Part shown: in pieces, positions 1,708-25,167 of the stretch
Layout of the letters: each line of letters starts with the position of its first letter
How positions within the stretch are numbered: the first letter of the stretch is position 1
IMG/VR virus record: IMGVR_UViG_2778261417_000008
Coordinates: 1 to 33,955 of that record
Length of the DNA stretch: 33,955 nucleotides
From: a virus
Taxonomy: Duplodnaviria; Heunggongvirae; Uroviricota; Caudoviricetes
Strand: one strand, 5' to 3'
Notes under the pieces: model-generated
Databases searched by the model: none
What the model saw: only the letters and a program-made list of their open reading frames with translations
What the model was told of the DNA's origin: nothing
Translations under genes and position numbers: made by a program

Positions 1708-1821
1708 GGCACTTGTGTGAATCCCTTTTCGGAAGAGATTTTATTGAAAGTCACTTGTTGACTTTCTCGTGACAAGCAATTTTTTTATTTTTTTCGGGAG
1801 TAGGGGAGGAAGGTAAAATCC

Positions 1822-1910
1822 AAGGTGAAATCGTGGCGATTTCACCTTGAAATTTTAGAGTGATTTACTTTAAAAACAGTAGGTTAATAGTGAAATTTGA
1901 ATGGCGAAAG
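1822..1910 (-). promoter_or_regulatory. parS: parS partition site (centromere): heptamer box A and hexamer box B motifs on two arms around an A/T-rich, IHF-like core
   Basis: GTGAAAT/ATTTCAC heptamers at 1826-1832, 1840-1846, 1891-1897 and TGGCGA (=TCGCCA) hexamers at 1835-1840, 1903-1908, immediately downstream of parB. Confidence 0.8.
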
Positions 1911-1911
1911 T

Positions 1912-2913: not shown

Positions 2914-2929
2914 GGGGGTTTCTTACTCC

Positions 2930-4126: not shown

Positions 4127-4141
4127 CGAAAGTCATCCTTT

Positions 4142-4176
4142 ATGCTGTATTTTTGAATTTAATTAAAAATGCTGCA
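4142..4176. promoter_or_regulatory. par operon operator: imperfect inverted repeat upstream of parA
   Basis: atgctgtattttt…aaaaatgctgcat palindrome directly upstream of the parA start. Confidence 0.55.
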
Positions 4177-4264
4177 TAAAATAATAATGTATGCGTAGAT
4201 GCTTGTACATAGCATTCTCTGCATGTTTGGTTCATTTTGCACGATTGAGAGTTACAAGGAGGGC

Positions 4265-4287
4265 ACAAAAAAGCCCCGTTCAGGGGC
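4265..4287 (-). terminator. Rho-independent terminator for the gene at 4295-5104
   Basis: Minus strand reads GCCCC-tgaac-GGGGC followed by TTTTTTGT. Confidence 0.7.
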
Positions 4288-4294
4288 ATCAGTG

Positions 4295-5104
4295 TTATTT
4301 GCTAAGAGCAGCGAATAATCGTTCGAAATCGATAGTATCTATAGCACGCGTAAGCGCCGGAAGTTCAGCCTCAAAGTACCCGTGTCGATCGTAAAAGAAG
4401 GGACCGAAGAGCGAGGCATGTTGGATTCTACTTCGCCCCAGCCCGGACACACAGTTAAGCCCATTACCGGCTAAAAGGCTAAAAAACTTCTCTGGATTAT
4501 CGTGGTAAAGCTGGGAATCAATGGTGGCGGTTAACTCTTCCATAGGGAAGCACACCCGCCCTGTATCCCAGGGATATTTAGTCCGAAGCATAAACATTGC
4601 TTTCAGCAATTCACATTGAGCGCGGATCGCGTCCGGTTCATAGCCAGATATGGAGACATAAGCCACGTCCCTCATTCCTGCGTCATCTTTGAAAGTCACG
4701 ATAGAAGTAACATCCAGCTCTTTTTCGAAAGAGCAAGCAGCATCTACTGGACGCTGAAGTAAATCATTCGACTTAATGCGCTCGAGAATCCCTCCCCACA
4801 TATCATTTAGATATTCGATATGAGCCAAAACCTTATCAAGACACTCTCGTGTAAACCATTCAGTATGCCCGCCACCGGCGCTTTTCTCCCACGGCGCATT
4901 CCAGGGGAAAAAGGTTGCGTGTAAAGCCCGCTCAAGATTAACCATTGCCAAACGCGTACCACGATAGACCCGTGAAAGCGCAAAATCGGGACTCACTTGT
5001 AGCCCTTTAAACCGTGCCAATGGACCACATGAAATGCCGATTTTAAAAGTATCTCCGTTCTCTGGCACCAGAACGTAGAGGTAGTGTTGTTTCTCTTCTT
5101 GCAT
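4295..5104 (-). CDS. T5orf172 / GIY-YIG-like domain protein (N-terminal about 100 aa) with an uncharacterised C-terminal domain
   Basis: N-terminus YLYVL…FKIGIS…GHTEWF resembles the T5orf172 family. Standalone gene with its own terminator, between the incA-like iterons and the par operator. Confidence 0.5.
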   Translation of the reverse strand: MQEEKQHYLYVLVPENGDTFKIGISCGPLARFKGLQVSPDFALSRVYRGTRLAMVNLERALHATFFPWNAPWEKSAGGGHTEWFTRECLDKVLAHIEYLNDMWGGILERIKSNDLLQRPVDAACSFEKELDVTSIVTFKDDAGMRDVAYVSISGYEPDAIRAQCELLKAMFMLRTKYPWDTGRVCFPMEELTATIDSQLYHDNPEKFFSLLAGNGLNCVSGLGRSRIQHASLFGPFFYDRHGYFEAELPALTRAIDTIDFERLFAALSK

Positions 5105-5134
5105 ATCAATACCACTGCTTGATGAGAACCGCGC

Positions 5135-5365
5135 AAATGTTGACTATGCGCGATGTGACTACAGTCAAAAGTTGACTGTAGTCGATTTAACTCCACCAAA
5201 GATCGACTATGTAAGATATTGTCGGGAGAAACGTTGACTATACGCGATGAAATGCCCCTAAAAGCCATCCCAATAGCGACTTGCAGAATATTGACGCCAG
5301 CAAAAATCCACCAGCGTCAACGAATGTCGCCTATAGTCAACTTCTCGCTATCGCATATAGTCAAT
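5135..5365. repeat. incA-like iteron array downstream of repA (about 7-9 copies, both orientations)
   Basis: Repeated GTTGACTAT(A/G)CGCGAT-like units at 5139-5155, 5171-5187, 5201-5217, 5233-5249 and inverted copies near 5305-5360. Confidence 0.75.
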
Positions 5366-5366
5366 A

Positions 5367-6251
5367 TTATGGATTGCGCTTATGGATCTGGAAGCCGATT
5401 TTCCTGCCGTTTTTTATCTCTGAAAATTTAAGATATTCAATAGCTTCCAAATCTTTCATGGCTTTTCTGATAACGCTATTTTGCACGCTAACGGATGATT
5501 TGAGATTAAGCCTCGCTCTAAGGCGCTCAATGCTGACAGGTGCCGGGTTGGCGGGTAGAGCCTCAAAGAATGTATACAGTACCTTGGCCGTCTCTTTGCG
5601 CCCTAGTTTATCCAGCATCTTCAGCTTCAGGATTCGCTTATAGTCAACATAGTAAAGTTCAGATAGCTGTTTCTGCGGCTGGATCTCGATAACATCAAGC
5701 TCGGTATTCAGGCTGCTATATGCCAACAAGTTGACGTTAATGTTATTGAGATGACCTTTTGCCGCCGGGAAGCGGAATTTGACAACTGTCTGCTGAATGC
5801 GTGTCAGAGAGTCATCAATACTTTTACGGAACGCCTTTGAAAGGCGCTTACGTGGATAGCCGCATCGATCGGCAAACTCGGAGAATGGCAGGGTGATTAT
5901 GCCGTCATCATCAGGTGCGTAGTCAAACAACGCGGAGGTTATGCCCACCCACACCTTAAAATCAGTATCCATATCCAGGCGTGGACCATGAATTTCAATT
6001 CCCTCATAGCCTTCCTGCTCAACAATTTTGAGGCTTGATAGTTCTTCGGTTGCGTTCGTTGTGTTTGTAGTAACTGACGATCCGCGACGTAGCGCCACAT
6101 TGGTAGATTTTAAGGTTGGCACAAACACACCTAAGCGCAACAAAGCGATGGGTTGTATAGTGCTGTTGTTATTGGGCTTCAGGCTGTGGATTTCTCCTGT
6201 ATTTCCTGCAACTTCTTCAACGCTAAGGAAGCCTTTACTTTCTTCCGGCAT
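5367..6251 (-). CDS. repA: RepA iteron-binding replication initiator (P1 RepA family, divergent)
   Basis: Shares blocks with P1 RepA (…QPIALLRLGVFVP…, …GPRLDMDTDFKVWVGI…). Likely start is the ATG at 6251 (GGAG 7 nt upstream); the ORF track extends to 6287. Confidence 0.85.
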   Translation of the reverse strand: MPEESKGFLSVEEVAGNTGEIHSLKPNNNSTIQPIALLRLGVFVPTLKSTNVALRRGSSVTTNTTNATEELSSLKIVEQEGYEGIEIHGPRLDMDTDFKVWVGITSALFDYAPDDDGIITLPFSEFADRCGYPRKRLSKAFRKSIDDSLTRIQQTVVKFRFPAAKGHLNNINVNLLAYSSLNTELDVIEIQPQKQLSELYYVDYKRILKLKMLDKLGRKETAKVLYTFFEALPANPAPVSIERLRARLNLKSSVSVQNSVIRKAMKDLEAIEYLKFSEIKNGRKIGFQIHKRNP

Positions 6252-6330
6252 CGCGGTTTCTCCATGTGTGGCGCGGCCTGACGTCAATTTGGATGGCTGT
6301 TATCAACAGCTGTGAATATTCAGACTCTAA

Positions 6331-6433
6331 AATCGCTTACAGTCAATGTTTCTGTCGCGTATAGTCAACAATAAATCGCGTGCAGTCAACAATAAATCGT
6401 GCACAGTCAACATAAAATCGCGTATAGTCAATG
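6331..6433. repeat. incC-like origin iterons: five direct repeats at about 21-bp spacing upstream of repA
   Basis: AATCGCGTATAGTCAAC-like units at 6331-6348, 6354-6371, 6374-6392, 6395-6413, 6416-6433. Confidence 0.85.
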
Positions 6434-6545
6434 TTGATCCCATTTCAGGCCAGAAATGGCGCGGCTTACAGCGATCCGGGATCTTCTTTGGATCTTCCTA
6501 GGTTCTCTTTAGGATCTGTTTATTGGATCTATGCTGTGGATAAGT
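6434..6545. promoter_or_regulatory. Origin-associated GATC cluster (six or more Dam sites) and DnaA box (TTATCCACA, minus orientation, 6533-6541)
   Basis: Dense GATC repeats (tgatccc, cgatccggg, ggatcttc x2, aggatctg, ggatctat) and a consensus DnaA box next to the iterons. Confidence 0.7.
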
Positions 6546-6585
6546 TGAATAAACCGGCCAACATAGCCGGTTGGAAGGAAGGGTA

Positions 6586-6978
6586 TTATTCTACGCTTTC
6601 GATAAGAAGACCATGTTCATAACATTTAAGCTCATCGCCTTCGTACAGGAATTGGTATCCAATACCACCATTTTCATGGACATTAGGGAATAACTCATAA
6701 CTCACTGAAGAGCAAATCACACCAATGCAGCGATCAACGCCTTCTCGTTCTTCAGTGCTGAAAAAATCCTCTTCGGTAAGAACATGAGTACATTGCTCAT
6801 CAGCATAGGTCGGAAATACATGCTCGATGCAATCCGGGTGTTTTAAACCAAGCTGATCGGCAAGCTCGAAAGCATGACGGTATTGTTCAGATCCTGGCTT
6901 GCCAACAGTGATGTGCTCAATTTTGTAGATTGAAGTCGCTTTGTTGATAGTTTGCTTTACTGTTACTTTATCAGACAT
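6586..6978 (-). CDS. Hypothetical Cys-rich protein (130 aa)
   Basis: Clean ORF adjacent to the origin; no family recognised. Confidence 0.45.
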   Translation of the reverse strand: MSDKVTVKQTINKATSIYKIEHITVGKPGSEQYRHAFELADQLGLKHPDCIEHVFPTYADEQCTHVLTEEDFFSTEEREGVDRCIGVICSSVSYELFPNVHENGGIGYQFLYEGDELKCYEHGLLIESVE

Positions 6979-7106
6979 AAAAATCCCTTTTAGTTACCGC
7001 TGATAGCGCGGTTGTAATCATTAACGTTGCGATTCTTCCTGTTAATCCCCATCAGCATCGTTTCTGAACCGCCCCGGGTTTCCTGGAGAGTGTTTTATCT
7101 GTGAAC

Positions 7107-9849
<2,743 letters not shown>

Positions 9850-10267
9850 CGTAAGTAAAATCAGCCACCCACAGCTGGTCAGGTCGTTCTGCCACGAACT
9901 GACGGTTTACGCGGTCGCCTGCGGCAACGGCTTTCCGGCTGATGGTCGTACGGACCTTTTTACCCCGGAGAACACCGGCAAGTCCCATAACCGCCATGAG
10001 ACGTGCCACAGTGCATCTGGCCACTCTGATACCTTCCCGTAACAACTGACGCCAGACTTTACGCACACCGTATACCTTGTGATTTTCATCGTATACGCGC
10101 TGTATCTCTTTCTTCAGCCAGTCATTGCGCTGCGCACGGGCACTGCGTTTATCCGGATGATGTCGCTGTTGCTGACAGTGGTAATACGTTGACGGGGCAA
10201 TATGTAGTTCACTGCATACCGGTCCGACCCCGTACAGCTTACGCAGCTTATCCAGCAGTGGCATCAC
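9850..10267 (-). CDS. IS3-family transposase OrfB, N-terminal exon (upstream of the intron)
   Basis: …QLWVADFTY is the first D of the DDE motif; the ORF-track frame then reads on into intron sequence. Confidence 0.8.
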
Positions 10268-10590
10268 TTTTTCCAGAGGCGGTCGAACTCCGCCTTCGCA
10301 AAATAAGCGGAAGCCTGGCGAAGGATATCGTTACTGCGGCGCAGTTCACGATTTTCACGTTCCAGCTCTTTCAGACGCTGACGTTCAGCGGTGGTGAGCC
10401 CTCCATCACCGCCCCCGGTATCCCGCTCATGCTGGCGAACCCAGACACGCAGAGTCTCCGGCGTACAGCCAATCTTTGGAGCAATGGAACAAATTGTCGC
10501 CCATTGTGAGTCATATTCGCTCTGACTTTCCAGAACCATACGGACTGCCCGTTGACGGACTTCGGGGGAAAAACGAGTATTTTTAGTCAT
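10264..10590 (-). CDS. IS3-family OrfA (HTH/leucine-zipper transposase subunit), IS629-like
   Basis: 108-aa translation [22 protein letters not shown]…[33 protein letters not shown] matches IS629/IS1203 OrfA from memory. Confidence 0.85.
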
Positions 10591-10644
10591 CCTGTTTACC
10601 TCTTTCTCAGGAAGTTTAGTCTCCAGGATTCCCGGGGCGGTTCA

Positions 10645-11002
10645 CTATTACCTGGCCGTCGTATTGGAAATGGCGAATCATTTCGCGGATCCAGGTGGCA
10701 GGTGGGAGTTTTAATTTTTTGCCAACAGTCATACCCTGAGACTCATCCTCAAGCCCGGCGGCGAGCGTCACAACCCAGCGTAGCTCTGCTATGCCCCACA
10801 TACGGTAAGCCAGCAAATCCGGGCGATATTGCTCATCGGGAAGAACGTAATAAATCGTCAGATTCTTGTCGTTCGATTCACACATAAGCATCACCTCTTT
10901 GCGTAGCTCTGCCCTGAGTATTGGATCGGCTATGTTGCGGTCGTCATACCGCGACAGAGGATATTGCCGGGTGCTTTGGGTTGTAGTGATTGATGTAGCC
11001 AT
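10645..11002 (-). pseudogene. Hypothetical protein, 3' end truncated by the IS629-like insertion
   Basis: ORF 10616-11002 reads through the IS terminus at 10644; its C-terminal residues are IS-encoded. Confidence 0.5.
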
Positions 11003-11074
11003 AGTCAGCCTGCCAGAAATAGATGATGGTGATTCTACTGCTAGTCATTTGTTGATTATTTAACTCAATAAAAG

Positions 11075-11094
11075 AAAATTATTAGTGCAATTTT
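11075..11094 (-). promoter_or_regulatory. C1 repressor operator-like site (ATTGCACTAATAATTTT) upstream of the 11149 operon
   Basis: Close match to the P1 C1 operator consensus ATTGCTCTAATAAATTT. Confidence 0.6.
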
Positions 11095-11148
11095 GATTGT
11101 GAAATGTATCATTCTGCCCTTAAGTAGGTTCTTCACGAGGAAACAAAA

Positions 11149-11394
11149 TTGGCAGAACGTGTTGATGATGCAGAGCTGAGCATGAATCAGTTAGAAGCTC
11201 TCAAAGACATGGCCATCGATAACATCAGAAAGCAGGCACAGGTCGTGAGCCAGGTATTTACAGGGAAGTGTCGTTACTGCAATGAATCGATTGAATCAGG
11301 CATTTATTGTGACGCTGAATGTGCGCAATGGCACAGGGAAGAGCAGGCTGCAAAACAGCGTAAATATGGCATGCGACCGGCAGGATTTGACTGA
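11149..11394 (+). CDS. Small C4 zinc-ribbon protein (81 aa); possible DksA/TraR-like or Ogr-like transcription factor
   Basis: CRYC…x9…CDAEC motif; first gene after the operator-like site. Confidence 0.45.
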   Translation: MAERVDDAELSMNQLEALKDMAIDNIRKQAQVVSQVFTGKCRYCNESIESGIYCDAECAQWHREEQAAKQRKYGMRPAGFD

Positions 11395-11396
11395 TT

Positions 11397-11975
11397 ATGT
11401 TGCGCTTTACTGAGGAAGAGTTTCAGGCTTTTAGTGAGCGTCGAAATAAGGGGCGGTCCAGGCCAAAAACCAAAAAGGATCCATTCTTATCGCTTGCGCC
11501 GGTAAAAGAAGTTTCTCCACATGCGAAGGCACTTGCAGCACTGGCAAAGAACCCCGACCTGCGCGACGGAAATTGCGAGCACTTCGAGCAGGTTTTCATT
11601 TTTGATTACTTCGAACGCAAGCACCCTGACATCTATGAGCTGTTGCATGCAACGCCTAACGGAGGGAAACGTTCAAAAGCAACCGCCGGGAAAATGAAGG
11701 CTGAAGGGCAGAAAAAAGGTTATCCGGACATGAGTCTCGATAAAGCATGCGGTATTTATCACGGCATGCGAATTGAGCTTAAAGAACCAAATGGTAAAGC
11801 CCCGACGAAAGAGCAGATCGCCTGGATGCGCAGGCTTAGAGAGGAAGGTTACTACGTCGTTCTTGCGTATGGTGCAGAACAAGCGATAACCGCCATCCTG
11901 GAATACATGAGCCTTAAAAAGGGTGAGGCTATTGAGCATGTATTGAACGGTGACAAGTGGTTGTACGCTACGTGA
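11397..11975 (+). CDS. VRR-NUC-like nuclease domain protein (192 aa)
   Basis: …GYPDMSL…IELKEPNGKAPTKEQIAWMRRL…GYYVVLAYG… resembles the VRR-NUC / PD-(D/E)XK fold; start is 2 nt after the preceding stop. Confidence 0.55.
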   Translation: MLRFTEEEFQAFSERRNKGRSRPKTKKDPFLSLAPVKEVSPHAKALAALAKNPDLRDGNCEHFEQVFIFDYFERKHPDIYELLHATPNGGKRSKATAGKMKAEGQKKGYPDMSLDKACGIYHGMRIELKEPNGKAPTKEQIAWMRRLREEGYYVVLAYGAEQAITAILEYMSLKKGEAIEHVLNGDKWLYAT

Positions 11976-12171
11976 AATAATAAATTAATTAGTGCATATG
12001 TGCTCTTTGATATAGCGCACATTAACATCGGGAGAATAATCGTGTCATCCAAGGCTAATTATGAATCGCTGGCATCGATCATGCCGCGTAATGAACAGGA
12101 AGCAGATGCTGTAGTGGACCCGGTAATCGCTGAAATGAATGCTCGCCTGGAGGCTGAATTTGCAGCTGAGA

Positions 12172-12801
12172 ATGAACATACCACCCAGGGCGACTAGGAC
12201 TGTTTTTTGTGTCGGTAGCGGTCCGTCACTCACTCGTGAGGACTGTGCTGCTATAGAAAAAACTGGCTGTTCAATCATCGCGGTTAACAATTCCTGGCAG
12301 ATGTTCGATGACATTTATGCCTTATACGCCGGTGATTTGTCATGGTGGAAGCAATACGGATCCACCATACCGGGAGGGAGATTCCGCAAAGTGACAGCCA
12401 ACCTGGCGGCGGCGAAATCATTTTCGTTGGAGTACAGGCGATATTGTGGACCGGCTGAAGGGGTTAATAGCGGCGCGCAGGCTATCAGTCTGGCGGCTGA
12501 ATCAGGGGCTGAAGTAGTTGTATTAGTCGGCTATGACTGTTCTCTGCAAAACGGCCTTCATTGGCATGGAGCACACCCTCAAGCCCTACGGAATCCAACG
12601 CAGGTGTCTATTTCAAAATGGCAACAGCAGTTCCTGGATACCCGCAAAAAACACGCAGATTTACATATTTTGAATGCAAGTAGGAGCAGTGCAATTCAAT
12701 GTTTCCCAAGAATAAATTTAGAGGCAGTGATCGCGTTATTATCGTCGGCAGTGGCCCAAGCGCCGCAAACTTTGTTGCGCCGCGCGGAGTGCCGATTATA
12801 G
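12172..12801 (+). CDS. Hypothetical Rossmann-like protein (paralogue 1), GSGPS…IAVN motif
   Basis: Start inferred at the ATG at 12172 (the ORF track begins at 12139). Shares a VGSGPS…IIAVN…core with the next ORF. Confidence 0.5.
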   Translation: MNIPPRATRTVFCVGSGPSLTREDCAAIEKTGCSIIAVNNSWQMFDDIYALYAGDLSWWKQYGSTIPGGRFRKVTANLAAAKSFSLEYRRYCGPAEGVNSGAQAISLAAESGAEVVVLVGYDCSLQNGLHWHGAHPQALRNPTQVSISKWQQQFLDTRKKHADLHILNASRSSAIQCFPRINLEAVIALLSSAVAQAPQTLLRRAECRL

Positions 12802-13325
12802 CGGTCAATGGGGCCATCGACTGGCTGAACCGCGCTTCTTATTTTTTCACACTTGATCCATCGCCAGACAATATGCGGCGCGTTGGTCGTGGCCGCCGTC
12901 GCCGTGGTGTTTGTTATTGCATGGCACTACCCGATGTTAAAGAACGTGAAGTCAGAGACGGCGTTCTGTGCTTCCGTCGTGTGGCTGAACGTGGCATGGA
13001 GCCAAAAAATACGAATTCTCCCGAGTGGTGGGCGTGGCGCTGGTCCGCACATTTCGGACTTTGCGAAGATGAGAATGAAATTGCCAGCGGCAATAGTGCA
13101 TATGGCGCTCTGAACCTGGCTTTCCATATCGGATTCAAACATGTCGCCCTGGTGGGCGTTGACGCTACACAAGAACCACGCGTTCACTCCGACGGCACGC
13201 CAAAAAATCTAAGTCACCTGCCTTTGTTATTCCAGTCTGCGCGTGAACAGATTGACGTTGTTTCATGCGGGAAAATGGGAGGTATTCCGCAGATGACTCT
13301 TAAAGAATGGCTGAAGAATACATGA
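12699..13325 (+). CDS. Hypothetical Rossmann-like protein (paralogue 2), GSGPS…IAVN motif
   Basis: [29 protein letters not shown]; overlaps paralogue 1 by about 100 nt in another frame. Confidence 0.5.
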
Positions 13326-13999
13326 TGGCACCCACAATTTATCACCGTATCGACGGTACCAAATACAGGAATGTCTGGGTTGTTGGTGATCTGCATGGTT
13401 GCTACACCAGACTGATGTCCGAACTCCATCGTGTGGATTTTGACCCGGCGCAGGATTTACTGATATCGGTCGGCGACCTTATCGATCGCGGTACTGAAAA
13501 TGTCGAATGTCTGGAACTATTGCAGATGCCCTGGTTCAGAGCGGTCATGGGTAACCATGAGCGGCTGATGATTGATGCGTTAAGTCCAGATGGCAACGTG
13601 AATAACTGGCTAATGAATGGCGGACAATGGTTCTTCATGCTGGACACTGATCAGGAAATATTAGCCTGGGCGCTGGTGGAGTTGGTAAGACGACTGCCCT
13701 ATATCATTGAGTTGAACACCGGGCAAGAAACTATCGTTATAGCCCATGCCGACTATCCGGATAATGAATACCAATTCGGTAAGGAGGTGCCGCTTTTCAA
13801 CGTTGTCTGGGCGCGCGAGCGTATCAGTGATTCGATGGATGATATTGGTGGCGAAATTTCGGGCGCAGATCGTTTTATCTTTGGTCACACTCCGGTGAAA
13901 AGCCCGAAGACATTCTGGAATCAGCAGTATATCGACACTGGTGCCGTATTTTGCGGAAACCTGACATTGATGAAAGTGAAAGGTGATGGTGCAGCATGA
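13322..13999 (+). CDS. ppp: Ser/Thr protein phosphatase, lambda PPase-like metallophosphoesterase
   Basis: GDLHGC…GDLIDRG…GNHE motifs. P1 carries a gene called ppp; equivalence is inferred. Start is ambiguous (13307, 13322 or 13325). Confidence 0.75.
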
Positions 14000-14997
14000 A
14001 GATTGCTTTAGTTTTTCGCTCTGGTGGTGACTATAACGCTTCCGATGTGCAGTGGCTGGTTAATCAACTGCCAAAAGGCTATGAAATTATTTGCCTGACA
14101 GACCTGAAGCGTTTACATGTACCTGGCGTCAAAGTTGTCCCATTGATCAACCAGTGGCAAAAGTGCCGTGGCTGGTGGGCGAAAATAGAGTTGTTCCGAC
14201 CGGATATAACAGATGATCTGTTCTATCTGGATTTGGACACAGTTATTGCCGGTGATATACGCCCAATCCTTGAGAATCCACCAACCAGCTTCACCATGCT
14301 TAGGGATTTTTACCATCCACAATATCGTGGTAGCGGTGCCCTGTGGATACCAAATAGTGTAAAAGCGCATATCTGGAGTGCATTCTGGCAAGATCCGGAA
14401 GGTTGGGTTGCTCGTTGTGTTACTACTGAATGCTGGGGTGATCAGGGGTTTTTGCGGAAGGTTATGGGTGATGATACACCAGCATTTCAGGATCTGTATC
14501 CGGGATGGTTTGTAAGTTACAAGGCCGATGTTGTGGAACCTGGTTCGAAATATGCGAGCGCGCGTTACTCCAAGGGGAATGGGGCATTACCAAAAGACTG
14601 CCGAATAATCTTTTTCCACGGCAAACCGCGACCTCGCGAAGTGTCAGAGGATTGGCTTCCCCTTATCAGCTCGTTTTTTGAGCGAGAATCAGAATTATAT
14701 TGCTCTAATAATTCCATATTTTTAAAGCGTGATGTACACTCATCACGTTTTTTATTAGAGCAATCTACAGGGTGCACTATGTGGCCATTCCGACGGAAAT
14801 ATCACTACTGGCTGATCGCCTTTGTTACGCCGACCGGCGGTATCAGGCATGTCATCACCAGGTATCGCAACAAGAGACTCACCTTAGCCAGAATTTTACA
14901 GGCTGCCATAGGTGAGGGACTGGATACAAATTGCGTAGTCCTTCCTCCTTCATACTTAGGAAAAATGACCGAAGCACAAGCTAATACGGAACTTTGA
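13996..14997 (+). CDS. Hypothetical protein with a DxD (YLDLDTV) motif; possible glycosyltransferase
   Basis: 333-aa ORF, start overlaps the previous stop. DxD motif only; weak assignment. Confidence 0.4.
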
Positions 14998-14998
14998 A

Positions 14999-16261
14999 AT
15001 GAGCACTTCAGCACAAAACCAATCAATCGAAAATGTATCTATCCCTGATGTCCTGAATGCCGGTATCCCGGCCATTATCCAGAACATCCGGGCCGCGCAA
15101 CGCCGCGTTAGTTGTGATGACCTCACAGCACGTTTTTTTGATAATGCGGTTCAGTCAGCGGAGATGCTTCACGCACAGCTTATTGATGTTTATAACGCAG
15201 AAGCTGATAGCCATAACTCCCTGGTAGATGCAGCTGAAAATATGCAGTTGGATCTCGGTCTGAAGGGTAAAGAAATTGAAGAGCTTCAGCTGCAAATTGA
15301 ACATTTGAAACGCCAGCAACAGGACGCGATCGACGATGCGACGCATGACGCCAACCAGCGTGCTGATAATGCCGAACGTATAAGCATTGAGCTGGAAACA
15401 AAACTCAATGAAGTGACCGCGATGGTTGAACTGCGGAACTCACAGATTTCAACGCTAAAATCTCAATATAAAGAGATCATGAAACTTGATCCTTTTAACC
15501 TTGAGAAACGCTATAACAAAGCCAAAAGTGAGCGACAGGAACTGCGTAAGCAGGTCGCCGACCTTAACCAACAGCTCAAAAAGACTATTAAAGATGCAAG
15601 TGAGGCGCGCGTGGCATTTGCTAATAAAAAAGCAGAGGTTACCGCGCTGGTTAATGAGAATGCCAAATTTGCGACGCTCAAGAAGGAAATGTATGGCATT
15701 ACTGAGCGACGTTTCCCTGCAAGCAAACTTCATCCGACGTTAGGGCAAATCTCCTTCTTCCCGCGCCTCCTGGCTTATGGGATCTCATCGCCTAAAGAGT
15801 TCAATAACGAGCGTCCTTATATCGTTTCTAAGCTGGACTTTGCTTATCAGTTCTGCTGCGACATGGGCTATGCCATTGATATCCGAATCAACGAATGGTT
15901 GATGCCAAACTTCCAGCCGTTGGCCATTTTCCGCGAGTTCCAGCCGGAAGGTTGGGTAGAGTTCTTCCATGAATTGATCTGTAAAGAGATGGAAAGCCGC
16001 CGCCCGGAACTGGTCCGTCGAGTTGAGTGGGCGCAAGAGGTTATGTTGGCAGAGGCAGAGCTGCCGTTCGAACCGGAATTTATTGATGATCTGGCAGCTA
16101 AAGGGCTGCATACCCTGTTTGATGTGGTTACCCGCCGTCATGAGCAGTTGGTTGTCGAATTGGGTTTAGAGGAAACAGCGGCAAGAAGACTTCTCGATGT
16201 TTGCTATGCACGTAGCGATGCATGGGAAAAAGAGAACGGCGGCACTATTTACGTTCGCTGA
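14999..16261 (+). CDS. Hypothetical protein with an N-terminal coiled-coil (420 aa)
   Basis: Heptad-rich Q/E/K/L segment at residues about 60-220; C-terminal domain unrecognised. Confidence 0.45.
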   Translation: MSTSAQNQSIENVSIPDVLNAGIPAIIQNIRAAQRRVSCDDLTARFFDNAVQSAEMLHAQLIDVYNAEADSHNSLVDAAENMQLDLGLKGKEIEELQLQIEHLKRQQQDAIDDATHDANQRADNAERISIELETKLNEVTAMVELRNSQISTLKSQYKEIMKLDPFNLEKRYNKAKSERQELRKQVADLNQQLKKTIKDASEARVAFANKKAEVTALVNENAKFATLKKEMYGITERRFPASKLHPTLGQISFFPRLLAYGISSPKEFNNERPYIVSKLDFAYQFCCDMGYAIDIRINEWLMPNFQPLAIFREFQPEGWVEFFHELICKEMESRRPELVRRVEWAQEVMLAEAELPFEPEFIDDLAAKGLHTLFDVVTRRHEQLVVELGLEETAARRLLDVCYARSDAWEKENGGTIYVR

Positions 16262-16333
16262 AAGTTACAGTGTCACTTTTGATGCTGGTGGAGTGCGCCC
16301 ACCAGCATTTTTTTCGTCCAATGAGGAGGGCAT

Positions 16334-16840
16334 TTGAGTATTTTCAATAAACACGCACACCAGGAACGTCCGTATATCGTCATAGTTGATATTGATGGAA
16401 CAATATCAGAGGCAACTGAAGACAGACTGCATTTGCTTCCGCCACCAGGTAAAGGTGCATTAACAAAGGACTGGAACGAGTTTAATCTCGCCTGTGACAC
16501 TGATACTCCCATAACTCCAGTTATTGATATTGTGCGCCAGTTATTTAACGTTTACACGGTCTGGTTTGTAACCGGACGCTGTGAGATCGCAAGGGATAAA
16601 ACACGAGCCTGGCTGCGGAAGTACGTAACAAACGGGGCTGAGCCTTTGCTATCTATGCGTCCTGCCACCGATGACAGAAATGACGGCCCAGCAAAGATTG
16701 ATCTCCTTAAGAAAATTGGTCTAAGTAAAATCGCGTTCGCGCTGGAAGATAAGATTGAAGTGGCGCGTGTTTTCAGGAGGCACGGCGTGCTTACGTTAAT
16801 GGTCAGGGAGTATGAAAACGCGCTTCTCCATCAACAATAA
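16334..16840 (+). CDS. HAD-superfamily phosphatase-like protein (168 aa)
   Basis: VIVDIDGTIS (DxDGT) motif I near the N-terminus; possibly the P1 pap-like gene. Confidence 0.55.
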   Translation: MSIFNKHAHQERPYIVIVDIDGTISEATEDRLHLLPPPGKGALTKDWNEFNLACDTDTPITPVIDIVRQLFNVYTVWFVTGRCEIARDKTRAWLRKYVTNGAEPLLSMRPATDDRNDGPAKIDLLKKIGLSKIAFALEDKIEVARVFRRHGVLTLMVREYENALLHQQ

Positions 16841-16856
16841 TTGCTCTAATAAATAT
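16840..16856 (+). promoter_or_regulatory. C1 operator (ATTGCTCTAATAAATAT)
   Basis: Near-perfect match to the P1 C1 operator consensus. Confidence 0.7.
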
Positions 16857-16938
16857 TTATTTTTAAAACAGAGAAAGTGAAAATAAAAACATGCCGCAAG
16901 GCGCGGCATGTATCCAATCAATCACAGGAGCTGAAAAT

Positions 16939-17025
16939 ATGAACACGGCATTCAAAATCATTATGGCCGCGATCTATTTCTGGCTGTTCTCTATCACTTT
17001 TGGCGATATCGTCGCACATGGGTAA
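16939..17025 (+). CDS. Possible small hydrophobic peptide (28 aa, MNTAFKIIMAAIYFWLFSITFGDIVAHG)
   Basis: AGGAG 8 nt upstream of the ATG; flanked by hairpins at 16891-16911 and 17063-17090. Speculative. Confidence 0.25.
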   Translation: MNTAFKIIMAAIYFWLFSITFGDIVAHG

Positions 17026-17104
17026 GGGGAGTATATTAGCCATTTGGAACCCCACGGTCTCTTGCGGGTTTAATTAAGAACCCGCAAGAAAAACACGAAT
17101 TGGG

Positions 17105-20100
17105 CTATATTTTTCCGCCTACGCCTTTAAACTTCTCAATAAACGAGACGATTTTCTGGAAAACTGCCTGTTTTTTCGTTTTATATTGCGGATTTAACGG
17201 ACTAAGTTTTGGTAATGTTTCGTTTAATTCTGTGCCATTTTCGGTGGCATATTCGCGTTTTAAAGACGTGCGAATATAGCGTTTTGCTGCATCTTCATTG
17301 AGATTTTCTTCTTTTATCAATGCTTCTGCTTCACGTTGCTGTTCGCGTTGAGCAAACGTAAAGAATGCGTCAATGATGCTGGCTTTGTCCGGTAAATCAT
17401 CCAGGTTCGTTTGCTGAATAAAATCGACCACCAGGCCCTCTTTAGCACGGTTTCCCAGGCTTGAACGAATTAAGCGTTTGACCTCTTCGATCATTTCGCC
17501 CTTGCCTTTATTTTGTCTGTTGTGTTCGAAAATCAGTCCAAGGATATAATCCAGGTTTATTTCCTGAGACTTCAGCAAATCGACCTCAAAAACTACGTCA
17601 TCCCAGTCAGTGGTTGATTTCTCTTTTTTCTCAGCTTCTTTCTCACGGCGCTGCCAGTCGCGAATATCGTTATAGGCAGAACGATAATCCTGAATCTTGC
17701 GATCAGCAGGGAGACGAATTGTTTGCAATTCAGCGAACTTTTCATCATCCACATAATGTTCTGCTTTGAATTTTTCTACCGCAACAGGATCGCTAAGATC
17801 GATTTGTTGCAGGGCTTTTAGCGTGGCAAATTCATCATAGTTTTGCAGGATGTTCTCGGCACGCAGGTATTCGCCAAACAGTTTAACGAAGTCTTTCTTC
17901 TCTTTTTCACTTTCAATACTGGTAGGGTCAGGGAACCGTTGTTCCAGTTCTGAAACTACTGTCATGAAGCCGCGTTTAGCTTCACCTGTAGCAGCATCAG
18001 TAAAGCCTTCCATATACTCTGTATAACTCTTTTCTAACACCACATTTTTGGTGTTTTTGTCACCAAACAGCGTTATGGCATCAATAGTTGAGCGTTCCAG
18101 ATCCCGGAAAGTGACGATATTACCGAAGGTTTTAGTGGCGTCATAAATGCGGTTGGTGCGGGAAAATGCCTGCATCAGGCCGTGATAACGTAAGTTTTTA
18201 TCGACGAATAGCGTGTTCAATGTTGGAGCATCGAAGCCGGTTAAGAACATCCCCACGACAATTAGCAGATCGATATCCTGATTTTTAACCCGCTGGGCTA
18301 AATCACGATAGTAGTTCTGAAAACCGTTACTGTCGGTGCTAAAGTTAGTTTTAAAATGGCTGTTATATTCACGAATTGCAGCGTCCAGAAACTCTTTAGC
18401 ACTGCTGTCCATTGCGCTGGTATCAAAAGTTTCATCGGAAATTTCACCAATGGCATTTTGTTCTTCATTGGCGGCAAAGGAGAAGATTGTCGCAATACGC
18501 AGCGGTTTATAGGTAGCCGATTTATTAGCGGCTTCTTCTTGTAACCGTTTAAACGTCGCATAATAGGCTTTCGCGGCATCCACGCTGCTCACTGCCAACA
18601 TAGCATTAAAACCTTTTGAGCCAGGGAAGGTACGGTGGGTTTTCTGGCGGAAATTATTCAGAATATATTGCGTGATTTCCTGAATACGCATGGGATGAAG
18701 AAACGCCTGCTGATTTTCAGCCGCACTCAGTTTTTTCTCGTCAGTTTCTGTCTCTAAAGACTTAAACTGTGGCCGCACATCGTTGTAGTCCACCTTGAAT
18801 TTGAGCACTTTTTCGTCACGAATCGCATCGGTAATTACATACGAATGCAATTCACGACCAAATACGCTGGCGGTTGTTTCTGAGCCTAAGGCGTTTTCCG
18901 GGAAAATAGGGGTGCCGGTAAAACCAAACTGATAATAGCGTTTGAATTTCTTCTTCAGGTTTTTCTGCGCTTCTCCAAACTGGCTGCGGTGGCATTCATC
19001 AAATATAAACACCACTTGCTGATTATATACAGGCAGATCGCTTTCTGCTTTCATCAGGTTATTGAGTTTCTGAATAGTAGTGACGATAATTTTGTTATCG
19101 TCCTTATCCAGATTTCGTTTAAGGCCTGCGGTATTTTCCGAGCCGTTGACGCTGTCTGGCGAAAAACGCTGATATTCCTTCATGGTCTGGTAATCGAGGT
19201 CTTTCCTGTCGACCACAAAGAAGACTTTATCAATAAAGTCCAGCTCTGTTGCCAGACGCGCGGCTTTAAAGCTGGTGAGGGTTTTACCAGAACCGGTAGT
19301 GTGCCAGATATACCCACCGCTTTCCGGTTTTGACCAGTTCTTCGCTGTAAAGGAACTCTTAATTTTCCACAGAATGCGCTCGGTGGCGGCAATCTGGTAC
19401 GGTCGCATTACCAGTAGTGTCTGACTGCTGTCAAAAACGCTGTAGTTCACCAGAACATTAAGCAGAGTATGTTTCTGGAAAAAGGTGGCGGTAAAGTCTT
19501 TGAGGTCTTTAATCAGCGTATTGTCTGATTTCGCCCAGTTCATGGTGAAGTCAAAACTGTTTTTATCGCGCTTTGTCGTGTTGGCAAAATAACGGGTATC
19601 AGTGCCGTTGGAAATGACGAACAGCTGCAGATACTTAAACAGGGAATTTTCGCTGTTAAAACTCTCTTTACTGTAACGATGTATCTGGTTGAAAGCCTCA
19701 CGAATCGCCACGCCGCGTTTTTTCAGTTCGATTTGTACCAGCGGTAAGCCATTAACCAGGATAGTTACGTCATAACGGTTAGCGTGAGAACCCGCCTGTT
19801 CAAACTGCTGGATAATCTGCACCTTATTGCGCATGAGATTCTTTTTATCTATCAAATAGATGTTCTCAAGACGCTCGTCATCAAAAATAAAGTCGCAAAT
19901 ATAGTCGATATGGATTTTACGGGTCTTATCCAGAATGCCATCGCTCGGGTTATCCAGATACTGCTCCGTGAAACGCCGCCACTCGCTGTCATTAAACACC
20001 ACACCATTGAGGTTCTGAAGCTGTTCCCGAACATTGGCCAGCATCGCCGACTGTGATTTTACGGATATAAATTCATAGCCCTGATTCCGTAGGTCCTGTA

Positions 20101-20221
20101 TCAGTTCGCGTTCCAGGTCCGATTCGCTCTGGTAGCTGTCGCCTGTTGGCTCAGCTTTGATGTACTTATCAAGAACGATAAAGTTATTGGATTCAGCAAT
20201 GGTGTGTGTCTGATGAGTCAT
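17105..20221 (-). CDS. hsdR: Type I restriction enzyme R subunit (HsdR), type IC / EcoR124-like
   Basis: 1038 aa; helicase motifs ([22 protein letters not shown]); length matches EcoR124 HsdR as I recall it. Confidence 0.9.
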
Positions 20222-20342
20222 AGCGCATCCTTTGTGCCGTCTGGCAAGGGCCGGAAGGGGGGTAATGGTGACTTCCGGCGCGTAAAAAATAGTCTATATA
20301 CTGACCGGGTGTTAAGGTGGTCCGATCGGTAGCAATGATCAA

Positions 20343-21557
20343 TTAATTACTGACAGTTTCAGGTTTCGGGAAACTGAACAGTAAATCACGATAGTACTCG
20401 TATTGTTTCTGGCGCAACTCGATTTCACGCGGAAGACCTTCGGTGATGGAGTTAGTCAGTGTGTCGAATTTGTCGAGTATTTCGACAATTCGTTGTTGTT
20501 CATTGATGTTAGGAACCGGAATTTTAAATGAAAATAATTTTTTACTGTCAATAGAAGCTACGGACCCTCCTGTCTTTTTCGCTGCTCGCAGAATATCACT
20601 CCCCCTAGACCCAATCATATGATAAATATATTTAACCAAGATGTTTTCATGAGGAATGACTGCTTTCATATCTTGATTGAGCGTAGCAGGTACTTTTATT
20701 AATGCACTTGGTAATACTTTATCCAATATGCTTGAGCGAACAACGATTGCAATCGAGTTTGCTGGAATCAGTTTTGTTGACGATTGTAGAACAGCCTCCT
20801 CAGTTATATAGTCTTCCGAAGAGTCTACAAGTGTTCGGCCCATATCTTTCGGGGAAATCCATGGAATGCTTCCATTTTCCCAAAATTCAATTTTATTTTT
20901 TGATGGTGTCCCTCCCCCATACCATTTTCCGATCTCTCCCAAAGTCTTCCACTCAACCTCACCCTCTTTAAAACTCAACAACTGGTCGCGATAGTAGTTG
21001 TACTGTTTTTTACGCATGTTAAGCTCAGCGGTAAGCTCAGCGGTAAGTGCAGTAAATTTATCCAGAATCCGAACGATTTCAGACTGGATGGCAAGGGATT
21101 TTTCCGGATTATCCGGGCAGGGGATTGGGATTTTTTTTTGAGAATAATTACTAATCCATTGGCGTTTATGGTCTCCCTCTGCGAATTCACTTGGTAATGT
21201 ATTGAGCCAATAGTAAACATATTTCAGTAAGGTTTTATTATCATCACATGATGTAACCATTTTCATGGCCGATGATTTTGCCTTAAAGTCAAAATCCACC
21301 CATTTATTAGCGGTGGTGAAATCATCAAAAATTATTACAGGTGCCTTTGATGCCTGATAAATACCATGAGTCTCATTTGTGTATCCAAGAATAAATGTTT
21401 TTCCGGCAGTAAGAACCGGTATGGTATATGTGTCGTGATAATCTTTTGCTTTTACCAAATACTTTGTTGGCTGTTCATATTTGGTTATTTCCCCCAATGG
21501 CAACCACTCAACTTCAACCCCATCCAGCAATTTTTCCAGATAACTCATCTCGCTCAT
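20343..21557 (-). CDS. hsdS: Type I restriction-modification specificity subunit (HsdS), EcoR124-like
   Basis: 404 aa with two target-recognition domains around a central conserved region containing TAELTAEL; 4-nt overlap with hsdM. Confidence 0.9.
21021..21044 (-). repeat. Tandem 12-bp repeat (2 copies, encoding TAEL-TAEL) in the hsdS central spacer region
   Basis: aagctcagcggt aagctcagcggt on the plus strand; the next 12 nt (21045-21056) are a degenerate third unit. Confidence 0.85.
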
Positions 21558-23116
21558 TTCTGCACCTCGCAGCCTTCAATTTCAGCCACAATCGCATCAA
21601 TATCTTTGCGCAACTGGTCGATTTTGCTGACCGTGGTTTTCAGCTCAGCATTCAGCTCAGCAATATCGATAATTTCGCGGTTATCTTTCGCTTCCACATA
21701 GCTGCTCACCGACAGGTTATAGTCATTAGCAACAACGGTCTCAAACGCGACAGATTTCGCCAGATGAGCAACATCTTCCTTGCTGGCAAATACCTGCATA
21801 ATCTGTTCGATATGGGCATCGGTCAGGATATTGTTGTTAGTCTCTTTTTTGAACAGTTCGCTGGCGTCAATAAACTGAACGTTGGTATCCGTTTTATGTT
21901 TGGACAGAACCAGAATGTTTACTGCAATGGTGGTGCCAAAGAACAGGTTCGGTGCCAGTGAAATTACGGTTTCGACATAGTTATTGTCAATCAGATACTG
22001 ACGGATTTTCTGCTCCGCGCCGCCACGGTAAAAAATACCCGGGAAGCAAACAATCGCAGCACGACCTTTGGCAGAAAGATAGTTCAGCGCATGTAATACA
22101 AACGCAAAGTCAGCTTTGGATTTGGGGGCCAGAACGCCAGCCGGGGCAAAACGTTCATCGTTAATCAGCGTCGGGTCATCGCTGCCAATCCATTTCACCG
22201 AATACGGCGGGTTAGAAACGATGGCATCAAACGGTTTTTCATCTCTGAAGTGTGGCTCAGTCAGTGTATTACCCAGCTTGATATCAAACTTGTCGTAGTT
22301 GATGTTGTGCAAAAACATGTTCATACGTGCCAGGTTATAGGTTGTATGGTTGATTTCCTGACCAAAAAAGCCTTCTTCGATGATATGGTCATCAAACTGT
22401 TTTTTAGCCTGCAACAACAGCGAACCGGATCCTGCTGCCGGGTCGTAGATTTTGTTAACGTGGGTCTGCCCGTGCATAGCCAGTTGTGCAATCAGCTTAG
22501 AGACGTGTTGCGGTGTAAAGAACTCGCCGCCTGACTTACCGGCATTCGCCGCATAGTTAGAAATCAGGAACTCATAGGCGTCACCGAACAGGTCAATCTG
22601 ATGTTCGTTGAAGTCACCAAGTTTTAACCCTTCAACCCCTTTCAGAACCGCAGCCAGGCGGGCATTTTTATCTTTAACGGTGTTACCCAGGCGGTTACTG
22701 GTGGTATCGAAATCAGCAAACAAACCTTTGATGTCAGCTTCTGAAGGATAACCGTAAGCAGAACTTTCGATAGCAACGAAGATGCTGTTTAAATCTGCAT
22801 TCAGTCTGTCATTAGTATTTGCTTTCGCAGCTACGTTGCAGAAAAGCTGACTGGGGTAGATGAAGTAGCCTTTAGTTTTGATGGCATCGTCTTTAATGTC
22901 ATCAGTAATTACGCTGTCATCCAGTTTCGCATAACAGATACTGTCATCACCGGCTTCAATATAACTGGAAAAATTTTCGCTGATAAAACGGTAGAAAAGT
23001 GCGCCCAGAACGTATTGCTTAAAATCCCATCCATCGACCGAACCCCTGACATCGTTAGCAATTTGCCAGATTTGACGATGAAGCTCTGCACGTTGTTGAA
23101 TACTTGTCATTTTCAT
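21554..23116 (-). CDS. hsdM: Type I restriction-modification methyltransferase subunit (HsdM), EcoR124-like
   Basis: 520 aa; N6-adenine methyltransferase NPPY-type motif (VSNPPYS) and AdoMet-binding region. Confidence 0.9.
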
Positions 23117-25150: not shown

Positions 25151-25167
25151 ATTGCTCTAATGTATTG
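25151..25167 (+). promoter_or_regulatory. C1 operator-like site (ATTGCTCTAATGTATTG)
   Basis: Matches the C1 operator consensus in 13 of 17 positions; lies between the 347-aa ORF and the packaging genes. Confidence 0.55.

Follow-up and report, generated by a model that had tools for sequence, protein, structure and literature searches.

Predicted glycosyltransferase genes pmgO, pmgP and pmgQ form a candidate glycan-building cassette in the C1-repressed pmgL–pap region of a P1-like phage-plasmid

Introduction

Bacteriophages P1 and P7 carry a pmgL–pap region that is controlled by the C1 repressor and that goes by the names upf81.0-hdmA-D-ppp-shtA/B-pap in P7 (Lobocka et al. 2004). Here we describe the counterpart of this region in a 33,955-nucleotide stretch of DNA from a tailed phage (Caudoviricetes; IMG/VR record IMGVR_UViG_2778261417_000008, positions 1 to 33,955). 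This whole stretch is referred to below as the window, and coordinates are those of the window unless another record or locus is named. Much of what is known about the region comes from gene inactivation in P1. Gonzales et al. (2022) constructed 29 single-gene knockouts, five of which identified essential genes, and pmgR was the sole essential one in the region considered here (PMC9024508). Deletion of pmgR left heads and tails unjoined and could be rescued in trans, and the other 24 knockouts had no plaquing or antirestriction defect (PMC9024508). In a genome-wide CRISPR interference (CRISPRi) screen pmgL, pmgM, pmgO, pmgP, ppp, pmgQ, pmgS and pap were non-essential, and the two approaches disagreed only on pmgN and pmgR, with pmgN being essential by CRISPRi and not by deletion (PMC10695390). 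Our literature search returned no paper that gives a function to pmgO, pmgP, pmgQ, pmgS, pmgL, pmgM or pap.

The closest described systems for the genes at the center of this study are found in other phages and in bacterial envelope biosynthesis. In mycobacteriophages, glycosyltransferases that often occur with O-methyltransferases reportedly decorate capsid proteins and are dispensable for growth, a picture that is said to come from Freeman et al. in 2023. For phage Che8, glycosylation of the capsid by phage-encoded glycosyltransferases is presented as established in the consulted text of a paper citing that work (Freeman 2023 as cited in PMC11256854). In Escherichia coli, WaaZ is a 3-deoxy-D-manno-octulosonic acid (Kdo) transferase that adds a third Kdo to the lipopolysaccharide (LPS), with concomitant truncation of the outer core (PMC4651636). 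Literature searches on DUF115 in phages, and on capsid glycosylation in non-actinobacterial phages, retrieved nothing relevant.

In the present analysis we propose that the region is a C1-repressed lytic mosaic in which PmgO, PmgP and PmgQ would be the sole multi-gene enzymatic module, that this module builds a glycan, and that its likeliest acceptor is a virion protein; judged from sequence comparison, this reading as a whole seems to us nearly as probable as its opposite. The locus and its deletion phenotypes have been published before, and the putative role of pmgO, pmgP and pmgQ in glycosylation is the new element. With it, three ‘putative morphogenetic’ P1 genes that have been without a phenotype for 20 years are placed in a large family with a conserved cassette.

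Results and discussion

The window contains the pmgL–pap segment of a P1-like phage-plasmid

When positions 11070-16860 were used as query in a nucleotide search, 21 phage records were matched, 19 of which cover at least 80% of the query at 97.5-98.6% identity (18 records at 100% coverage and 97.9-98.6%, and the 19th at 90% coverage). Nucleotide identity to P1 (AF234172, 78523-84307) is 97.9% and to P7 (AF503408) 98.2%. The alignment with P1 is colinear with zero gaps across the region and contains 154 substitutions in ~6.4 kb aligned (flanks included), and the encoded proteins are 89-100% identical to the P1-type proteins, gene by gene. The window at 11070-16860 is the pmgL–pap segment of a P1-like phage-plasmid. 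A first, sequence-only reading of the window, made without database searches, had proposed a correspondence to the P1 pmg/ppp/pap region, and this now stands on sequence identity, not just on position. Gene order, promoters and the five C1 operators are common to P1, P7 and the window, and the map in Table 1 was obtained by transferring the P1 annotation (AF234172) onto the open reading frames (ORFs) of the window, with the P7 annotation also being used.

PmgQ resembles family 8 glycosyltransferases, and PmgO and PmgP resemble MptE/Maf-type enzymes

Searches of the PDB with the single sequences of PmgQ and PmgO were uninformative, and profiles and structural models were needed. The AlphaFold (AF2) model of PmgQ has a pLDDT (predicted local distance difference test) score of 94, and its top Foldseek matches are Gat1 (6MW5), GlyE, LgtC and glycogenin, with E about 1e-8 to 1e-7, probability 1.0 and template-modelling scores of about 0.56-0.62. 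A 30-sequence PmgQ profile searched against the PDB likewise gave Gat1 6MW5 first (E=1.2e-6), followed by GlyE and glycogenin. Invariant in the family are DLDT (D79-L-D81), GDQ, SYK, FHGxPRP and H208. The PmgQ protein of the window has no Pfam match, and the family member P0261 reached 18.8 bits versus the cut-off of 24.3 for PF01501 (Glyco_transf_8). Since the GT-A fold, the DxD motif and the C-terminal His are all found and the Pfam threshold is not reached, PmgQ is predicted to be GT8-like, that is, to belong to a distinct sister family of glycosyltransferase family 8 (GT8). With this fold and the DxD motif it is also comparable to the LPS-core enzymes WaaJ, WaaO and LgtC of GT8. Direct membership of the WaaJ family was considered and rejected, as an hhalign comparison of the PmgQ profile with WaaJ gave a probability of 31%, which is too weak.

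For PmgO (model pLDDT 86), Maf was the sole Foldseek match below E=1e-3, and the structural ranking also includes archaeal MptE (11.4), a Campylobacter alpha-2,3-sialyltransferase (10.7) and thiamin pyrophosphokinases (8-10). The model thus matches the fold of solved members of the MptE-like/Maf superfamily (Maf, MptE and a GT42 sialyltransferase). A comparison with the Maf flagellin glycosyltransferases (PF01973; PDB 5MU5) shows clear differences. PmgO has 220 amino acids against 632, it aligns to the central Maf domain only (163 of 632 residues) at 16% identity, the flanking Maf domains are absent, and its context is a phage and not a flagellar locus. In sequence space, several PmgO homologues at 62-74% identity have a precomputed PF01973 match, and a PmgO-PmgP fusion protein (P0092) scores 44.6 bits. 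The PmgO profile searched against the PDB gave only non-significant Cst-II matches. In the P7 annotation, orf7 of Pseudomonas phage D3 is listed as related to PmgO/HdmB.

PmgP shares a GSGPS...AVN motif with PmgO, of which it is a divergent paralogue. By BLASTP it matches a WaaZ-like protein of a Pectobacterium waa cluster (E=4e-7), and E. coli WaaZ is itself MptE-like at a sub-threshold level (Pfam E=7e-7), as are PmgO and PmgP. The sequence relation of the P1 proteins to the LPS-core enzymes WaaZ and WaaJ is nevertheless remote, and the P1 genes differ from these in being phage-borne and repressed in the lysogen. E. coli K-12 is not known to synthesize pseudaminic or legionaminic acid, which would leave CMP-Kdo as the donor for a Maf-like enzyme in this host. 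The overlap between pmgO and pmgP at 12699-12801 is read in different frames, and with respect to pmgO that of pmgP is -1.

The presence of MptE and of thiamin pyrophosphokinases in the PmgO ranking would also fit another activity, in which PmgO and PmgP are pyrophosphokinases of the MptE/thiamin-pyrophosphokinase type that activate a small molecule or hydroxyl, and PmgQ then glycosylates this product or acts alone. We consider this very unlikely, since the closest characterized sequence relative in context is the Kdo transferase WaaZ, and it is a GT8-like enzyme and sugar O-methyltransferases that consistently accompany these proteins.

PmgO/P-type and PmgQ-type genes form a conserved cassette in phages of diderm hosts

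The PmgQ family is large, with 4094 clusters at 50% identity (E<=1e-10). To examine gene neighborhoods, 79 viral and 56 genomic loci with PmgQ relatives were fetched, 74 of which are not P1-like and are called distant below. With few exceptions the hosts are diderm, among them Proteobacteria, Planctomycetes, Bacteroidota, Verrucomicrobia, Gemmatimonadota and Zixibacteria, and none of the 56 genomic loci belongs to Firmicutes or Actinobacteria. This host range fits a dependence on Kdo/LPS-type metabolism.

Of the 74 distant loci, 25 have a PmgO/P-type gene no more than three genes away from PmgQ, and 12 have an FkbM-type methyltransferase gene at such a distance. The link is also visible in fused proteins: a 421-amino-acid PmgQ-PmgO fusion in locus L072, the metagenomic PmgO-PmgP fusion P0092 (376 amino acids), and, within the best 145 PmgQ-family representatives, six fusions of the Q-O or O-Q type and three of the Q-Q type. 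Other PmgQ-family members carry N-terminal sugar O-methyltransferase domains (TylF, CmcI/rhamnosyl-O-methyltransferase and generic SAM types). Taken over the family, the cassette is fused or adjacent to O-methyltransferases of the FkbM, TylF and CmcI types and to a TupA-like ATP-grasp protein. Expanded cassettes in the head modules of two loci (L081:6099-7989 and L072:7012-7992) contain a SAM methyltransferase, a TupA-like ATP-grasp protein, a second PmgQ paralogue or a 326-amino-acid protein, which suggests that more elaborate glycans may be made in those phages.

At least 24 of the 74 distant loci have the cassette inside a head-gene block, which runs in the order terminase (TerL), portal, protease, major head protein, PmgO-like gene (with or without a methyltransferase gene), PmgQ-like gene, head-tail adaptor, head closure, neck and tape measure. 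The major head proteins of these loci belong to three PHROG families (10, 617 and 771/264), and the arrangement is therefore not that of a single lineage. Halomonadaceae prophages (L087 and L089) are among the loci in which the cassette adjoins the capsid gene. In the remaining 50 distant loci the neighbors are mainly terminases, portals, and tail and tail-fibre proteins. In a siphovirus-type lineage (L087:7308-7571, L056:7298-7552, L067:1699-1998 and relatives) the major head gene is followed by a gene for a small protein, which lies directly upstream of the PmgO-like gene. This protein has a folded N-terminal part and a tail rich in Ser, Pro, Ala and Lys, and the major head proteins of the same loci end in ..SSGA. 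It is plausible, as a speculation, that this small protein and the capsid protein are acceptors for O-glycosylation.

The other genes of the region behave differently. Among the fetched loci, Ppp, PmgL, PmgN, PmgS and Pap were found in P1-like elements only, and PmgM and PmgR in P1-like elements and in one distant relative (L054, 51% PmgQ identity). In L054 pmgP directly adjoins pmgQ, and ppp was absent from between the P and Q homologues there and in all non-P1 loci. In addition, no part of the region other than ppp has a DNA match in phage D6. Because of these two observations ppp is best explained as an insertion into the cassette.

A virion protein is the likeliest acceptor of the predicted glycan

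In the mechanism that we propose, PmgO and PmgP as MptE-fold transferases (Maf/WaaZ/sialyltransferase type) and PmgQ as the single GT8-like retaining hexosyltransferase would work together during lytic growth. Their product would be a short glycan, most likely carried by a virion (head) protein. The donors would be housekeeping nucleotide sugars of the host, with CMP-Kdo serving the Maf/WaaZ-like pair and UDP-hexose serving PmgQ. Such housekeeping donors are likely because the hosts are diderm and because no sugar-nucleotide synthesis genes were found alongside the cassette. The outcome would be a non-essential glycan coat as described for mycobacteriophages, presumably of some benefit to the phage, and Ppp would be a separately acquired phosphatase of the lambda type that became inserted into the cassette.

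A virion protein as the acceptor is a possibility that we hold tentatively. It is favored because in most phages the cassette lies in head-gene blocks and would be expressed with the late genes, because proteins or protein-linked glycans are the substrates of several of the best-characterized structural relatives (Maf, GlyE, Gat1 and glycogenin), because the genes can be lost, much as virion glycosylation is reportedly dispensable in mycobacteriophages, and because the P1 genes are off in the lysogen. As to the comparison with Che8-type phages, distant relatives of the P1 cassette adjoin the capsid gene and the cassette of P1 itself does not, and the P1 enzymes are Maf/WaaZ-like and GT8-like and belong to phages of diderm hosts.

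DNA was set aside as the acceptor, as no genes of a hydroxymethyl-pyrimidine pathway are known to be present. GT-A and Maf folds are also unlike those of the known DNA glucosyltransferases, and P1 DNA without Dar is sensitive to restriction.

The main competing acceptor is the LPS core of the host. In this scenario the WaaZ-like pair and the WaaJ/WaaO-like GT8 enzyme would remodel the core during lytic growth and thereby mask the P1 receptor, which would limit superinfection or the loss of progeny on cell debris. Homologues do occur in such a setting. In a Pectobacterium sp. (L090:1392-9639) a PmgQ homologue (37% identity) is paired with a WaaZ-like MptE gene within the waa LPS-core cluster, where the pair is flanked by GT8 and GT25 genes, with genes of the WaaG, WaaP and heptosyltransferase types located upstream; the MptE-like protein is 26% identical to E. 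coli WaaZ over 243 amino acids (E=5.5e-14 in a small database). The PmgQ homologues of Erwinia and Rosenbergiella (three loci) adjoin a WaaL-like O-antigen ligase, nearly all hosts bear LPS, and the PmgQ profile matches WaaJ, albeit weakly. The outer-core truncation that accompanies the third Kdo would also be in line with receptor masking, and the terminal glucose of the outer core is recognized by P1(S) (bioRxiv 10.1101/2022.07.24.501295). However, the P1 genes are repressed by C1 and hence off in lysogens, where masking of the receptor would pay, and LPS that is already in place would stay there through one latent period, so that lytic-only expression would mask little. LPS clusters furthermore account for only 4 of the 74 distant loci, and in most phage loci the cassette lies in the head-gene block and not at the integrase-proximal moron sites that are typical of LPS-converting genes. 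On balance we regard remodeling of the LPS core as rather unlikely. Should it occur nonetheless, it would represent a new form of lytic-phase receptor masking in a phage whose receptor is that core.

Several observations count against a glycan-building cassette acting on the virion. No glycan on P1 particles has been reported, and the searched text of the P1 virion proteome study reports none (PMC9024508). In P1 the cassette adjoins baseplate and tail genes and pmgR, not the capsid gene, and its promoter is under C1 control, from which expression both early and late would follow. PmgO (23.4 bits) and PmgP (20.9 bits) both miss the PF01973 gathering score of 34.6, and a comparison of the PmgO profile with WaaZ gave an hhalign probability of only 13%, on account of which membership of PmgO in the WaaZ family was rejected as too weak. 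As to the neighborhood data, ORFs in the fetched loci were called by a simple heuristic, and the head-module loci (at least 24) include groups of related phages and thus represent fewer than 24 independent events. Finally, the homologues at the four Enterobacterales chromosomal loci beside LPS genes (L090, L085, L086 and L088) are 37-45% identical to P1 PmgQ, about as close as the phage homologues are, and this would favor LPS as the acceptor.

The broader proposition, that the Maf/WaaZ-like and GT8-like cassette of P1 and of thousands of tailed phages of diderm hosts places a glycan containing Kdo or hexose on head proteins, is one that we would at present call doubtful. If it were true, virion glycosylation would be widespread and unrecognized outside the actinobacteriophages, and this could be the first protein glycosylation of the Kdo type. 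If virions were glycosylated, the dispensability of the genes in the laboratory would be explained, and phages of Gram-negative bacteria would come under the concept of glycan shielding, with what this means for immune recognition, the stability of particles and phage therapy. As the phage easiest to work with among them, P1 would then offer a test system.

The region is a mosaic of C1-controlled units

A scan of the window with the operator consensus gave 10 matches at three or fewer mismatches, against 0.19 expected by chance. The region itself has five C1 operators, two of which, Op83 and Op88, carry a single-base change relative to P1 (Table 1). The window copy of Op83, TATGCACTAATTAATTT, has four mismatches to the scan consensus and hence falls outside the scan. 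The sequence-only reading had seen an operator-like site in front of the genes and another at their 3' end, and these are Op82/O26 and Op88/OpmgT, respectively. It had further taken everything in between for one operator-fronted operon, a view that does not hold up in the presence of three internal operators (Op83, Op86a and Op86b), the adjacent promoters PpmgN and PpmgR annotated in P1, and the terminator-like hairpin between pmgS and pap. For these reasons the region probably consists of at least three C1-controlled units with a probable terminator, rather than one operon.

We accordingly picture a mosaic of separately controlled lytic-phase units that would all be kept off in the lysogen by the C1 repressor. 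The first would comprise pmgL-pmgM (zinc-finger protein and VRR-NUC nuclease) behind Op82 and the late promoter LPpmgL, the second pmgN-pmgO-pmgP-ppp-pmgQ behind Op83, the third pmgR-pmgS behind Op86a/b, with PmgR as the essential head-completion factor, and the fourth pap, after the terminator-like hairpin. PmgM, Pap, PmgL and PmgS would be independent accessory genes. The genes are tightly packed, with overlaps of 59 nucleotides (pmgN/pmgO), 103 nucleotides (pmgO/pmgP), 19 nucleotides (pmgP/ppp) and 4 nucleotides (ppp/pmgQ), and gaps of 1-2 nucleotides at pmgL/pmgM and pmgR/pmgS. This agrees with the packing, overlaps and shared direction noted in the sequence-only reading; its count of eight genes falls short of the ten annotated in P1, as pmgN and pmgR had been overlooked.

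The same reading had interpreted all these genes (eight, or ten with the P1 annotation) as one co-transcribed pathway for takeover, modification or counter-defence, with the nuclease, phosphatases and transferases acting on a common substrate. The packing, the common direction and the C1 control of all genes would agree with this, LPpmgL upstream could drive a long late transcript, and the HAD_PNKP domain of Pap and the metallophosphoesterase domain of Ppp are both related to RNA-repair Pnkp enzymes. The internal operators, promoters and hairpin split the region, however, and the gene-neighborhood check across the 74 distant loci showed that only PmgO/P-type genes and methyltransferases travel with PmgQ, so that outside P1-like elements the co-occurring genes of the region are those of O, P and Q alone. 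In addition, ppp is missing from the L054 cassette and is alone in matching D6 DNA. In a PADLOC scan of all ten proteins no defense or anti-defense family was found beyond coiled-coil noise, namely weak matches of PmgS to LmuB (E about 2e-4). Together with the unchanged antirestriction and plaquing of single-deletion mutants (PMC9024508), this speaks against counter-defense. An effect of deletion on phage development, on which the sequence-only reading had staked its proposal, is seen for pmgR, and all other genes of the region are dispensable for plaques (PMC9024508; PMC10695390). The expectation was largely disappointed in this respect. We know of no DNA hypermodification in P1, which also counts against a single pathway. 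All in all a single pathway is, in our estimation, the least probable of the explanations considered here.

Two positions in the divergent late-promoter region, 11039 and 11056, differ between the window and P1. The change at 11056 is inside the annotated -10 box of LPpmgL, which reads AATATT in P1 and ATTATT in the window. Six more C1-operator-like sites with 1-3 mismatches lie outside the region, at 25151, 27308, 29959, 30423, 30506 and 32544, which fits the presence of further P1 units under C1 control in the window.

Table 1. Features of the pmgL–pap region and its control sites in the window
Feature	Position	Strand	Remarks
gene 26 (baseplate), divergent neighbor	10616..11002	-	ORF; maps to P1 gene 26; translation 100% identical to P1
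Control region common to gene 26 and pmgL	11003-11148
Divergent late promoters LP26 and LPpmgL (-22 box, -10 boxes)	11032..11060	both	from P1 annotation
C1 operator O26/Op82	11075..11091	-	identical to P1; 2 mismatches to consensus
pmgL	11149..11394	+	81-amino-acid CxxC...CxxxC zinc-finger protein, DksA/TraR-like
pmgM	11397..11975	+	VRR-NUC (PD-(D/E)xK) nuclease domain in C-terminal half
C1 operator Oppp/Op83	11982..11998	-	heads pmgN-pmgQ unit; annotated in P1, P7; one base off P1
pmgN (P7 hdmA)	12000/12042..12197	+	51-65 amino acids; no fold assigned; ORF; P1, P7 annotation; phrog_2350, unknown function
pmgO	12139..12801	+	predicted transferase of MptE/Maf/WaaZ fold; cassette member 1
pmgP	12699..13325	+	second, divergent MptE/WaaZ-like predicted transferase; cassette member 2
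ppp	13307..13999	+	lambda-type Ser/Thr (metallo)phosphatase, inside cassette
pmgQ	13996..14694 (P1 stop position 14695-14697)	+	predicted GT8-like retaining GT-A glycosyltransferase; cassette member 3
TTA codon in place of P1 pmgQ stop TAA	14695..14697	+
C1 operator OpmgRa/Op86a	14699..14715	+	overlaps -35 of PpmgR; identical to P1
C1 operator OpmgRb/Op86b	14748..14764	-	identical to P1
pmgR	14779..14997	+	translation 100% identical to P1
pmgS	14999..16261	+	420 amino acids; coiled coil ~residues 75-230; C-terminal helix-hairpin-helix-like motif
Intrinsic-terminator-like hairpin between pmgS and pap	16281..16309	+	11-bp stem, 6 G-C pairs, T run
pap	16334..16840	+	stand-alone HAD phosphatase, polynucleotide kinase-phosphatase type
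C1 operator OpmgT/Op88	16840..16856	+	one change vs P1; in P1 controls next unit, pmgT

Accessory proteins of the region

The fold calls of the sequence-only reading (zinc ribbon, VRR-NUC nuclease, paired Rossmann-like proteins, Ser/Thr phosphatase, DxD protein, coiled coil and HAD phosphatase) are all supported, the Rossmann-like pair being MptE/Maf-like, the Ser/Thr phosphatase lambda-type and the DxD protein GT8-like. PmgL matches phrog_54, annotated as ‘DksA-like zinc-finger protein’, with E=1.6e-12, and has a sub-threshold Pfam treble-clef match. PmgM aligns over residues 77-179 to the prokaryotic VRR-NUC structure 4QBL (E=8.1e-17) and matches phrog_5702 ‘Holliday junction resolvase’ (5.9e-27); its Pfam VRR_NUC score of 21.2 bits is under the cut-off of 23.8, and the PD-(D/E)xK core motif ...YPDMSLD...IELK is present. 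Ppp matches the lambda phosphatase 1G5B with E=1.8e-94 and Pfam Metallophos with 59 bits versus a threshold of 21.5, its translation contains all of the GDxHG, GDxxDRG and GNHE motifs, and it was alone in receiving a name in the NCBIfam scan. Pap (168 amino acids) reaches 46.3 bits for Pfam HAD_PNKP versus a cut-off of 27.6, belongs to phrog_415 and weakly matches Pnkp1 (4XRP, E=5.5e-4). It has the DxDGT motif I as VDIDGT at residues 18-23.

Ppp, PmgM and Pap clearly belong to, or are closely related to, the families of lambda NinI (1G5B), the prokaryotic VRR-NUC resolvases (4QBL) and the HAD domain of T4 and bacterial Pnkp, respectively, with the difference that Pap has no kinase domain. Outside P1-like elements none of the three is conserved beside the glycosyltransferase cassette.

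PmgS gave weak SMC/coiled-coil matches only (Pfam, NCBIfam and PADLOC), and a single-sequence search of the PDB found no relative. Its family is confined to P1-like elements, with P0121 (27% identity) as the sole distant relative. The helix-hairpin-helix domain (PF14520) of P0121 aligns to the PmgS C-terminus ELGLEETAARRLLDVC (residues ~355-410), which hints that PmgS may be a coiled-coil DNA-binding protein and not an enzyme. For PmgR we considered a diverged head-tail adaptor or head-closure protein, corresponding to the siphovirus Ad1 position after Q, and rejected this with an hhalign probability of 0.5%.

Loss of the pmgQ stop codon

A TAA>TTA change at 14695-14697 distinguishes the window from P1 and joins pmgQ and pmgR, which share a frame free of further stops, into a single ORF at 13996-14997 (333 amino acids) that spans both Op86 operators and PpmgR. 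The 333-amino-acid ‘DxD protein’ of the sequence-only reading is this pmgQ-pmgR read-through ORF. TAA is kept in 40 of 40 other P1-like loci (fetched loci with the same upstream 15-mer). A 61-mer search (14666-14726) for the TTA variant found no identical plasmid in PLSDB, a result confounded by a second single-nucleotide polymorphism inside the query. With the promoter, operators and ATG of pmgR all retained, free PmgR can probably still be produced from this plasmid.

Flanking DNA

Both flanks of the region differ from P1. On the left, an IS3-family insertion element and a group II intron take the place of genes 25, 7 and 24. The IS3-family element, at 7107-10590, abuts the 3' end of gene 26 and consists of orfA (10264-10590) and pieces of orfB (9785-10267 and 7107-7553), being interrupted by the group II intron reverse transcriptase/maturase at 7670-9193. 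In P1, gene 26 is normally followed by the tail genes 25, 7 and 24; these are absent at this place, and 343-7066 corresponds to the P1 par/rep region. The plasmid has thus been rearranged and may be defective in tail assembly.

On the right, downstream of pap and Op88, a type IC restriction-modification locus takes the place of pmgT-pmgV. It is EcoR124-like, lies on the minus strand at 16889-23116 and comprises hsdR (17105-20221), hsdS (20343-21557) and hsdM (21554-23116), with a terminator-like hairpin at 16911-16889. The same replacement is found in phages vB_EcoM-673R5 and phi456.

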